Sequence record: OR844578 | Strand: one strand, 5' to 3' | DNA: 51,807 nucleotides | From: Escherichia phage ECO26.1 3-1 | Shown here: piece after piece, positions 39,545-40,705 of the stretch | How the letters are laid out: every line of letters begins with the position of its first letter | Position numbering within the stretch: the first letter of the stretch is position 1 | The notes under the pieces: generated by a model | What the model saw: the letters and a program-made list of their open reading frames with translations, nothing else | The model's database searches: none | What the model was told of the DNA's origin: nothing | Translations under genes and position numbers: made by a program

Positions 39545-40705
39545 ATGAATACTTTTAAAATCGGAACGAATTTTGATTTAGCTCTTCTTGATAAAATCGT
39601 AGAGCTCAATAAAACTTATCCTAATAGCTTGATAAACGAAGTATACGGCTCTACAAGAGAAATGGCTTTTGTAGCAGCCAGACCTGATTTTAGGCTTCCT
39701 GACGTTGACAAAAAGATGTTAGAAGACTACGTTAAACGTTGTAACGAATTAGGTATTTGCTTTAACTATACACTCAACACGATAAATCCTGGTTCAAAAA
39801 GAGAACTAGTTGAGTGGAAGAAGAAAGCTATTCAGGATTATGTTCAGTATCTTTGGTCAATAGGCGTATGGCGTATTACTATCGCTAACCCTGTTGTTAT
39901 GGAAATTGTTCGTGAAGTCAATAAAGACATTGAGATTGAAGTTTCAACAATTCTACATGTCGATGCTGTAACTCAAATCAAATACTTGCATGACCAATAT
40001 AATATCAAAAAGGTCTGCTGTGGAATTCATAAGAACCGTTCAGTTTCTTTCCTGAAGCGTGCAGCAGAGTTTTGCAATAAGAACAATATAATATTTGAAG
40101 TTCTTGTAAATGAGTTCTGTTCTAATGCTGGTAAAGGGTATACAACACATTGTAGCTATCGTGACTCTTGCTATATTTTCCATAGTACTGATGTTACAGC
40201 TGATGATGCTAAATCCTTAAATGGATATCCTATGCAGCACTGTATTAAAGCTCGTGATACAGACCCATTTAACTGGTTGAGAACTCGTTTTGTTCGTCCA
40301 CAAGATTTGAAACTTTATAATGATATTGGTATTACTCAATTCAAAGTTTCAGGACGTACAGGTAGCACAGACTACATTTTGAAAGTTCTTGAAGCATACG
40401 CTTCTGAAAAGTTTGAAGGTAATTTGTTAGAACTGTGGAAGCCTTTAGAGACCATTTTCACTCTTGAAAATGAGACCGAGTTTTCACATACGGTAAATAT
40501 TGAAACCTCTTTGTTAGACGGCTTTTTAGAAAAAAGGTGGTTCAGACATCCAGATTTCGATTGTGCTAATGAAATCTGCGGGACGACGTGTACATATTGT
40601 GAAAGATATTATAAACGTCAGTTATCTAAAAATGGGTTATCAGAAAATTCTATATCTATTATTGATATAACTAACTCTGACGACGCTTTGAGGTACCCAG
40701 AATGA
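39545..40705 (+). CDS. Cys-rich protein of unknown function, possible metal/Fe-S enzyme
   Basis: 386 aa; C-terminal C-x4-C-x3-C-x2-C (CANEICGTTCTYC) plus several other Cys; no SD; no family assigned. Confidence 0.55.
   Translation: MNTFKIGTNFDLALLDKIVELNKTYPNSLINEVYGSTREMAFVAARPDFRLPDVDKKMLEDYVKRCNELGICFNYTLNTINPGSKRELVEWKKKAIQDYVQYLWSIGVWRITIANPVVMEIVREVNKDIEIEVSTILHVDAVTQIKYLHDQYNIKKVCCGIHKNRSVSFLKRAAEFCNKNNIIFEVLVNEFCSNAGKGYTTHCSYRDSCYIFHSTDVTADDAKSLNGYPMQHCIKARDTDPFNWLRTRFVRPQDLKLYNDIGITQFKVSGRTGSTDYILKVLEAYASEKFEGNLLELWKPLETIFTLENETEFSHTVNIETSLLDGFLEKRWFRHPDFDCANEICGTTCTYCERYYKRQLSKNGLSENSISIIDITNSDDALRYPE

Follow-up and report, generated by a model that had tools for sequence, protein, structure and literature searches.

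What does the product of gene 50 contribute to the DNA modification module of RB69-type phages? The question is taken up here with a stretch of 51,807 nucleotides (hereafter the window) from Escherichia phage ECO26.1 3-1 (sequence record OR844578), an RB69-type T4-like phage (Mosigvirus) in which gp50 is encoded beside genes for cytosine modification. 5-Hydroxycytosine (5hoC) has recently been recognised as a base to which arabinose and other sugars are attached in phage DNA. RB69 DNA contains mono- and di-arabosylated 5hoC (Lee et al. 2026, PMC13326640). The precursor, 5-hydroxy-deoxycytidine monophosphate (5-hydroxy-dCMP), is made with flavin by the ThyA homologue gp48, with oxygen taken from 18O2, and three genes upstream are assigned to the synthesis of uridine diphosphate (UDP)-arabinofuranose from ribulose 5-phosphate (PMC13326640). 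We propose that gp50 is an O2-independent, prephenate-dependent dCMP 5-hydroxylase, a reading that we hold with a little better than even confidence; its least secure parts are the mononucleotide substrate and the role as an anaerobic backup.

The gene is a genuine ATG open reading frame (ORF) on the plus strand, as the first-pass annotation had it. Its DNA is 98.9% identical to RB69ORF050c, its position is that of RB69 gene 50, and its GC content, checked as a sign of recent insertion, is not deviant. That annotation also placed the gene between sugar-activation genes and a "hydroxymethylase"; the position is right, and the neighbour is the ThyA homologue that acts as 5-hydroxy-dCMP synthase (PMC13326640). 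In the study of the RB69 pathway, gp50 appears in Table 1 only, as a "sugar or heterocycle reductase" matching 5d88, and is neither discussed nor tested; RNA pyrimidine hydroxylation pathways are raised in its Discussion with no tie to gp50 (PMC13326640). Elsewhere the protein is annotated as a "peptidase" or a "putative enzyme involved in UDP-arabinose biosynthesis", or is counted among sugar-modifying genes. The gene is already known and annotated and therefore is not new as an object; the hydroxylase reading is new relative to the accessible literature, in which searches on the Afh names, on U32 with phage and on prephenate with phage DNA modification found no paper giving gp50 a role.

gp50 had been called an orphan, with no family assigned by eye, a label that does not hold. 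The protein has the conserved domain PF01136 (Peptidase_U32; 42.2 bits against a gathering cutoff of 22.4, residues 94-286), matches PHROG 5757 (E-value: 6e-267) and shares the domain with 117 of its 120 listed homologues. By tblastn, the U32 gene is present in 221 phage genomes, all with at least 80% identity and all of cultured Enterobacterales or Shewanella phages. The wider family comprises 1717 proteins at E-values of 1e-3 or lower and 495 at 1e-30 or lower, from 1.84 billion representatives searched. A profile alignment (hhalign) to E. coli TrhP, RlhA and UbiU gives a probability of 97.8% (E-value: 5e-12), placing gp50 C203 and C209 on the two cysteines of the U32 motif, C233 on a later cysteine and FKVSGRT on KIEGR. 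The motif cysteine pair and the K-I-E-G-R equivalent that characterise U32 hydroxylases are both found in gp50, at positions invariant in its family. PF01136 is its sole Pfam match at E-values up to 0.1, so that the accessory domains of RlhA and TrhP (including DUF3656) are absent, and gp50 has no similarity to the thymidylate synthase family, in which the known 5-hydroxy-dCMP synthases belong (ThyA fold, E143/N169). On sequence comparison, the gp50 family is a separate, divergent branch of U32.

The AlphaFold2 model (109 sequences; predicted local distance difference test score, 93.9) is a complete eight-stranded beta/alpha (TIM) barrel. An insertion between barrel strands 7 and 8 holds C192-C233, and a C-terminal extension holds a four-cysteine motif. 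The nearest fold is that of the U32 protein Mk0906 (PDB 5d88), likewise a TIM barrel and the only solved U32 structure found; it has 247 amino acids, is 11-14% identical and lacks the region of the C-terminal cysteine cluster. The profile and fold checks that had been recommended at first pass thus returned the U32 family and a Mk0906-like barrel. A PDB sequence search with the gp50 protein gave no match, and BIM1, the sole PDB match of the family profile, was judged spurious.

The cysteines were compared in an alignment of gp50 with 120 homologues (121 sequences, identity down to 48%). The first-pass annotation had noted a C-terminal C-x4-C-x3-C-x2-C cluster; this is exact (C340-x4-C345-x3-C349-x2-C352), and all four residues are invariant, far beyond chance. 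It had also pointed to further conserved-looking cysteines, which is correct for C158, C192, C203, C209 and C233 (all invariant) and C177 (97.5%) and incorrect for C66, C72 and C159. In a set of 130 full-length proteins representing the wider family (clusters at 50% identity), C192, C233, K267 and R271 are universal and the C-terminal four cysteines are present in about 85%. The proposed metal or iron-sulphur (Fe-S) centre fits these data: the characterised U32 members are Fe-S-dependent, and the conserved cysteines align with cysteines essential in them (PMC5727448, PMC10990095). gp50 has nine invariant cysteines in two groups and is predicted to bind a [4Fe-4S] cluster. The CX3CX2C spacing, with an aromatic residue before the last cysteine, also fits radical S-adenosylmethionine (SAM) enzymes; a radical SAM reading of C345-x3-C349-x2-C352 was rejected because the motif is C-terminal, lies outside the barrel and has no Radical_SAM Pfam match. 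About one third of the distant representatives lack C203 and C209 and mostly have glycine and histidine there; such members occur in cultured Clostridia, among them Ruminiclostridium papyrosolvens (L027) and Cellulosilyticum ruminicola (L031). These members may form a sub-branch with another cluster ligation or function.

Each genetically characterised U32 protein is linked to hydroxylation that requires prephenate and Fe-S but not O2 (PMC5727448, PMC6599085, PMC10990095). RlhA is required for 5-hydroxycytidine in 23S rRNA and needs Fe-S biogenesis, prephenate, the U32-motif cysteines and its C-terminal cysteines (PMC5727448). TrhP is responsible for prephenate-dependent 5-hydroxyuridine in tRNA, with the O2-dependent TrhO as its aerobic backup (PMC6599085). 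UbiU and UbiV replace flavin monooxygenases under anoxia, with prephenate identified as the oxygen donor by 18O labelling (PMC10990095). A redox tailoring enzyme in the modification module, one of the possibilities listed at first pass, fits this family of hydroxylation factors. A hydroxylase also fits the pathway, because 5hoC is needed and its known source, gp48, takes oxygen from O2. Pairing of gp50 with gp48 would have a precedent in E. coli, which pairs UbiI/H/F with UbiU/V and TrhO with TrhP in the same manner.

For prephenate use by gp50, the neighbouring genes provide a genomic proxy. A chorismate mutase gene (Pfam CM_2; 40.9 and 44.6 bits, cutoff 27) lies 3' of U32 in Kanagawavirus, Winklervirus and further T4-like phages, with or without a gp49-type ORF in between; in PM2 and TG1, gp49 and the chorismate mutase are both present. 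The chorismate mutase was found by tblastn in 51 phage genomes, all of T4-like phages with Enterobacterales or Shewanella hosts, and it adjoins U32 in 16 of the 16 genomes whose coordinates were compared. In loci of anaerobe phages, six fusions of 3-deoxy-D-arabino-heptulosonate 7-phosphate (DAHP) synthase and chorismate mutase (L011, L059, L061-L063 and L073) occur within about 2 kb of U32, a stand-alone chorismate mutase lies beside U32 in L008, and DAHP synthase alone lies directly downstream in L047. Two independent arrangements would thus provide prephenate beside U32, which is hard to explain unless the enzyme consumes it. We know of no description of phage shikimate-pathway genes in a DNA modification context. 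The fusions consist of a type I-beta DAHP synthase with a C-terminal AroQ chorismate mutase, and some of these loci are in records of metagenome-assembled genomes (MAGs).

Outside T4-like phages, orthologues with 40-58% identity and all of the cysteines occur in 13 GTDB genomes or MAGs and about 33 IMG/VR viral contigs, many of 130-295 kb. The GTDB carriers belong mostly to lineages of anaerobes from gut or sediment (Erysipelotrichales, Oscillospiraceae, Romboutsia, Lachnospiraceae, Phocaeicola, Tannerella, Gastranaerophilaceae and a Woesearchaeote), and nearly all cellular records with an orthologue are of strict anaerobes. Neighbours within 8 kb were clustered for 45 of these loci. Homologues of the arabinosyltransferase gp46:47 are the commonest (27 loci), gp52:53-like proteins are present in 19 and a SIS isomerase in 11, and Tmk-like (thymidylate-kinase-like) kinases and dCMP deaminase recur. 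One typical order is glycosyltransferase, SIS isomerase, nucleoside triphosphate (NTP)-transferase/kinase, HAD-like protein, in some cases DAHP synthase-chorismate mutase, and U32; a second is Tmk, glycosyltransferase, U32 and the alpha subunit of DNA polymerase III, and a minimal Tmk-glycosyltransferase-U32 cassette recurs. None of the 45 loci has a ThyA homologue of the 5-hydroxy-dCMP synthase type (E143/N169) within 8 kb. The sole ORF of the thymidylate synthase family among them has L143/D169/N177, as in E. coli ThyA, whereas the E143/N169 signature is present in gp48 of the window and in the homologues of Lazarus, JS98 and LC53. In the L077 contig, 39.5 of 49.3 kb were covered and no ORF of this family was found (best E-value: 0.026; positive control: 5e-126). 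These comparisons suggest that the set of three is conserved and that the hydroxylase slot beside the kinase and the glycosyltransferase is filled by a ThyA homologue, by U32 or, in RB69-type phages, by both.

Between T4-like and anaerobe-phage cassettes, the U32 protein is 40-55% identical, against 21-37% for the other shared proteins. In a neighbour-joining tree rooted on distant family members (no bootstrap), the T4-like sequences form one monophyletic group that sits four nodes deep within the metagenomic clade, which suggests a single acquisition.

The window also encodes the anaerobic ribonucleotide reductase NrdD and its activase NrdG. This phage is therefore built for DNA replication without O2, where gp48 cannot work. 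RB69-type phages carry the anaerobic reductase, and their hosts live mostly in anoxic guts. In the window the two genes are located some 17 kb upstream of the modification genes, just after a gene for a PinA-type protease inhibitor (18884-19435).

The proposed course of the reaction would be that of RlhA, TrhP and UbiU/V: Fe-S- and prephenate-dependent, and independent of O2. gp50 would put the C5 hydroxyl on cytosine, probably converting dCMP to 5-hydroxy-dCMP. Both dCMP and prephenate would bind at the C-terminal barrel face, the predicted location of the invariant residues (N74-N78, S134/H138/D140, C158, E185/N189/E190, K267/R271 and many arginines). In a scheme of the UbiU/V type, the pyrimidine would be oxidised by two electrons, and prephenate would decarboxylate and aromatise to phenylpyruvate while its C4 hydroxyl oxygen passed to C5 of the pyrimidine. 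A [4Fe-4S] cluster on C192/C203/C209/C233 would take up the electrons and pass them through the C-terminal four-cysteine site to an acceptor. C158, at the end of strand 6 and invariant in the core subfamily only, might attack C6 as in thymidylate synthases; this is speculation. The product would then follow the known route through a deoxynucleoside monophosphate (dNMP) kinase, the polymerase and the arabinosyltransferases. gp50 would be an anaerobic alternative to gp48 in RB69-type phages and the only hydroxylase in phages of strict anaerobes. That the gp50 family represents the first U32, prephenate-type hydroxylase of a DNA precursor, acting without O2 on dCMP (or another dNMP), is a proposition we consider evenly balanced.

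Several points weigh against this proposal. gp50 is only remotely similar to TrhP, RlhA and UbiU, with about 21% of residues identical when the profiles are aligned, and it scores 18.5 bits against a cutoff of 440 for the NCBIfam UbiU equivalog (NF047963). Direct hydroxylase activity has been reconstituted in vitro for no U32 protein (PMC10990095, PMC6599085), and the accessible literature, a phage Tn-seq preprint included, contains no biochemical or genetic test of gp50. No chorismate mutase is encoded anywhere in the window, so that gp50 would depend on host PheA/TyrA for prephenate. JS98-like coliphages do without gp50 although their host is a facultative anaerobe. The absence of a ThyA-type hydroxylase in anaerobe phages covers 8 kb on either side of U32 and 80% of one contig. 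Finally, the substrate of gp50 could be DNA, deoxyuridine monophosphate (dUMP) or something else.

Two alternatives differ from the proposal in the substrate. gp50 might hydroxylate cytosine, or another base, on the DNA polymer after replication, much as RlhA and TrhP act on RNA. Both nucleic-acid U32 enzymes work on polynucleotides, and the family and the DNA glycosyltransferase context are equally compatible with such an activity. Nevertheless, we consider it unlikely: gp50, with 386 amino acids against 653 and 453, has none of the additional C-terminal domains found in RlhA and TrhP, Tmk-like or guanylate-kinase-like kinases, dCMP deaminase and other enzymes of the dNMP level recur beside its orthologues, and the known phage route to 5hoC is pre-replicative (PMC13326640).

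A U32 hydroxylase with a different target is rather unlikely. The chemistry of the family would suit conversion of dUMP to 5-hydroxy-dUMP, a second base position, or tRNA or rRNA of the host or phage; dCMP deaminase adjoins some orthologues, and T4-like phages encode tRNAs. However, the conserved partner is a homologue of the glycosyltransferase that acts on 5hoC, no RNA-binding domains were detected in gp50 with Pfam, and only cytosine-derived modified nucleosides are reported for RB69 DNA (PMC13326640).

Current annotations imply that gp50 is an enzyme of the sugar pathway (an epimerase, mutase or reductase) that makes or tailors the UDP-arabinose donor, and an epimerase or mutase was also suggested at first pass. 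The distribution of the gene makes this very doubtful. The NTP-transferase/kinase was found by tblastn in 366 phage genomes, 57 of them from Acinetobacter, and none of these 57 Acinetobacter phages with the arabinose cassette is among the 221 U32 carriers. Acinetobacter phage Lazarus and coliphage JS98 encode the isomerase, NTP-transferase/kinase, phosphatase, ThyA homologue, glycosyltransferase and kinase, with neither U32 nor gp49, and DLP3 makes tri-arabinosyl-5hoC without a gp50 gene (PMC13326640). Because these phages manage the arabinose cassette without U32, gp50 is not expected to be a sugar step. Conversely, some orthologues lie in cassettes that lack sugar-activation genes, such as Tmk-glycosyltransferase-U32 or sets of nucleotide kinases with a glycosyltransferase or methyltransferase. 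Chorismate mutase has no role in pentose chemistry, three known enzymes already cover the steps from ribulose 5-phosphate to UDP-arabinofuranose, and none of the U32 proteins is known to have a sugar as substrate. Nothing favours a glycosyltransferase either, the "second transferase" of the first-pass annotation.

As an accessory redox partner, gp50 would supply reduced flavin or electrons to gp48 and would not itself hydroxylate. gp48 needs reduced flavin, gp50 has putative Fe-S sites, and its gene lies 280 bp upstream of gp48. This role is highly improbable: gp48 and a dNMP kinase suffice in E. coli (PMC13326640), a gp48-type partner is present within 8 kb of 0 of the 45 orthologues outside T4-like phages, no flavin- or NAD(P)H-binding domain was detected in gp50 with Pfam, and the linkage to chorismate mutase would be left unexplained. 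A genuine protease ("collagenase-like peptidase U32", the name in most database records) can be dismissed almost entirely, since the family name and automatic annotations that favour it are opposed by the lack of any established proteolytic mechanism in the family, by the hydroxylation functions of all its genetically characterised members and by orthologue neighbourhoods that all concern nucleotide or DNA modification.

The first-pass description of the locus is partly confirmed: what it observed holds, the orphan label and the hairpin considered below excepted, and its Fe-S and redox guess was on target. Its interpretation is partly supported; the transferase and epimerase options are not. 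The features of the window are listed in the following table.

Table. Coordinates of gp50, its predicted functional regions and associated features in the window.
Feature	Position	Strand	Basis or remarks
NrdD (605 aa; 19941-21758) and NrdG activase (156 aa; 21755-22225)	19941-22225	+	Pfam NRDD (E-value: 4.6e-171), Gly_radical; Fer4_12, Radical_SAM
RB69-like DNA polymerase	33847-36558		
UDP-arabinose supply genes (SIS arabinose-5-phosphate isomerase, bifunctional NTP-transferase/kinase, HAD phosphatase)	36599-39487	+	ORFs, Pfam
SIS arabinose-5-phosphate isomerase	36599-37234	+	
Bifunctional NTP-transferase/kinase (gp52:53)	37416-39101	+	Intact, 561 aa
HAD phosphatase (gp51)	39086-39487	+	
Sigma-70-like promoter match TTTAAA-N16-TATAAT, overlapping the end of gp51	39461-39488	+	Consensus match only
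Weak hairpin and A-run directly before the gp50 start	39517-39544	+	Folding
gp50, predicted U32-family Fe-S protein, RB69ORF050c orthologue	39545-40705	+	ATG ORF, 386 aa
Pfam Peptidase_U32 segment of gp50, residues 94-286, including FKVSGRT (KIEGR of TrhP/RlhA/UbiU)	39824-40402	+	Pfam, profile alignment
Central cysteine region C192/C203/C209/C233, predicted ligands of the canonical U32 [4Fe-4S] cluster	40118-40243	+	Invariance, alignment to essential cysteines of RlhA/UbiU (PMC5727448, PMC10990095)
C340/C345/C349/C352 cluster, predicted second metal site (Fe-S for electron transfer, or Zn)	40562-40600	+	Invariance; RlhA C-terminal cysteines (PMC5727448)
gp49	40702-40941	+	79-aa ORF, ATGA overlap with the gp50 stop
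gp48, ThyA homologue, O2- and flavin-dependent 5-hydroxy-dCMP synthase	40984-41700	+	Pfam Thymidylat_synt; E143/N169; PMC13326640
gp46:47, predicted first DNA arabinosyltransferase on 5hoC	41700-42599	+	Intact, 299 aa
gp45, Tmk-like nucleotide kinase	42601-43149	+	
UvsX	43248-44420		
aa, amino acids.

The genes recorded in RB69 GenBank as split by frameshifts (ORF052c/053c and ORF046c/047c) are single intact ORFs in the window. The published view is that the splits are sequencing errors, and the window agrees with it. gp49 is translationally coupled to gp50 and has conserved YY-DAF-HS and RHINVAKR motifs and no Pfam match. Its family is small (RB69-type phages, PM2, Yersinia phage TG1 and Providencia). 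The N-terminus (INHxLNEE) resembles the N-terminal extension of a 114-amino-acid chorismate mutase of Serratia phage LC53. Classification of gp49 as a degenerate chorismate mutase was rejected, given the lack of a Pfam match, an hhalign probability of 12% and a shared motif limited to nine N-terminal residues. In PM2 and TG1 the gene order is U32, gp49, chorismate mutase, and gp49 is therefore a separate gene. It may be a partner of the U32 enzyme.

Two statements of the first-pass annotation concern the region upstream of gp50. The first, that a Shine-Dalgarno sequence is missing, holds for a strong one (GGAGG); a GAG is present at -14 to -12, and relatives have GAG 7 nucleotides before an ATG. 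The second, a hairpin followed by an A-run, describes a structure that exists (5-bp stem 39517-39521/39533-39537, 11-nucleotide loop, seven-A run 39538-39544) and is not significant (-5.4 kcal/mol, z = -0.40; 64 of 200 shuffled sequences fold equally well). For this reason it was rejected as a regulatory element; nor is it a plus-strand terminator, because A, not T, comes after the stem. The number of sigma-70-like matches in the region is not above shuffle expectation; the TATAAT -10 element upstream of gp50 is kept in related phages. Downstream of this TATAAT, within 39488-39544, a block of the form CCTGCAAA(N1-2)CATCGCATC is conserved in Mosigvirus, PM2, Kanagawavirus and Yersinia phage TG1, while the surrounding non-coding bases differ. 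The block is possibly a promoter or translational-control element for a gp50-gp49-gp48 unit.

Some orthologues lie in cassettes of other composition. In the GTDB MAG loci L003, L009 and L015-L020, a conserved four-gene cassette without a glycosyltransferase, with the U32 gene at about position 8001, encodes a GP88-family protein, a guanylate kinase/SAM-methyltransferase fusion, a 265-amino-acid protein with faint HhH-GPD/AGOG/queuosine-salvage similarity and U32. Its product could be another modified nucleotide, such as a 5-methoxy-pyrimidine made by hydroxylation and then O-methylation. After the cassette, L003 and L009 encode an NT5C deoxyribonucleotidase, a PnuC-like transporter, a deoxynucleoside kinase and a protein resembling alanyl-tRNA synthetase and, further on, a radical SAM/SPASM protein, a second, distant U32 protein and a nucleoside 2-deoxyribosyltransferase. 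A larger conserved U32 module is found in the jumbo viral contigs L065, L068 and L070-L076 (148-295 kb) and in L014, a 62.6-kb Romboutsia MAG contig. On the opposite strand, 6 kb upstream of U32, it has two RimK-like ATP-grasp genes and a gene for a 600-amino-acid protein with no Pfam match; three small ORFs (about 109, 169 and 82 amino acids) directly precede U32, and glycosyltransferase, NTP-transferase/kinase, HAD-like, GT1-like and glycosyltransferase genes follow it. The ATP-grasp genes hint at further decoration such as amino-acid ligation. Shewanella phage Thanatos encodes a gp50 orthologue, TH1_065 (P0018; 79% identity), adjoined by chorismate mutase. Its DNA has been described as carrying a "deoxypentose" O-linked to cytosine, with no hypothesis offered for the origin of the hydroxyl (PMC12838424). 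A pentose on 5-hydroxycytosine would give the same mass.

The only known synthesis of 5hoC needs O2, a gap in the pathway that would be closed if gp50 is an oxygen-free hydroxylase. Such an activity would explain why RB69-type gut phages have two non-homologous hydroxylases, for oxic and anoxic infection, and would account for glycosylated 5-hydroxypyrimidine DNA in phages of strictly anaerobic gut bacteria, jumbo phages included; one prediction is that hypermodified DNA is widespread among phages that infect obligate anaerobes. DAHP synthase and chorismate mutase would become phage auxiliary genes for DNA modification that supply an organic oxygen donor, and a phage family of about 500 sequence clusters now labelled "peptidase" would gain a function. 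The modification status of the phage could vary with oxygen and with gene 50, and its sensitivity to restriction, CRISPR and type IV systems would vary accordingly, a point of relevance to phage therapy and engineering. The hydroxylase reading is directly testable. As the predicted substrate is a small soluble nucleotide, a first in vitro reconstitution of U32 chemistry is possible, and gp50 would be a tractable enzyme for testing the prephenate oxygen-donor mechanism.

Besides Mk0906, four known systems are close to the one proposed here. RlhA (YdcP), which acts on C2501 of 23S rRNA, shares with gp50 the U32 motif cysteine pair and C-terminal cysteines, the latter essential in RlhA, and its chemistry, C5-hydroxylation of cytosine, is that needed by the phage pathway (PMC5727448). 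In contrast to gp50, it has 653 amino acids, carries a C-terminal DUF3656 domain that defines a subfamily to which gp50 does not belong, and acts on the pre-50S ribosome; gp50 has a compact C-x4-C-x3-C-x2-C cluster and a predicted deoxynucleotide substrate, and the similarity of the two is seen by profiles only. TrhP (YegQ), another remote relative, forms with TrhO a pair resembling that proposed for gp50 and gp48, in which a U32 prephenate route and an O2 route serve one C5 pyrimidine hydroxylation in a facultative anaerobe (PMC6599085). There the substrate is a tRNA uridine (ho5U34), and the O2-dependent partner TrhO is of the rhodanese family, not a ThyA homologue. UbiU and UbiV are U32 proteins with [4Fe-4S] clusters on four cysteines and are the anaerobic counterparts of UbiI/H/F (PMC10990095), as is proposed for gp50 with respect to gp48; unlike gp50, they form a heterodimer that acts with UbiT on the aromatic ring of a lipid. 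RB69 gp48 and DLP3 gp80 share with gp50 the proposed product, the gene cluster and the downstream kinases and arabinosyltransferases (PMC13326640), whereas their fold is unrelated and their use of flavin and O2 has been demonstrated experimentally.

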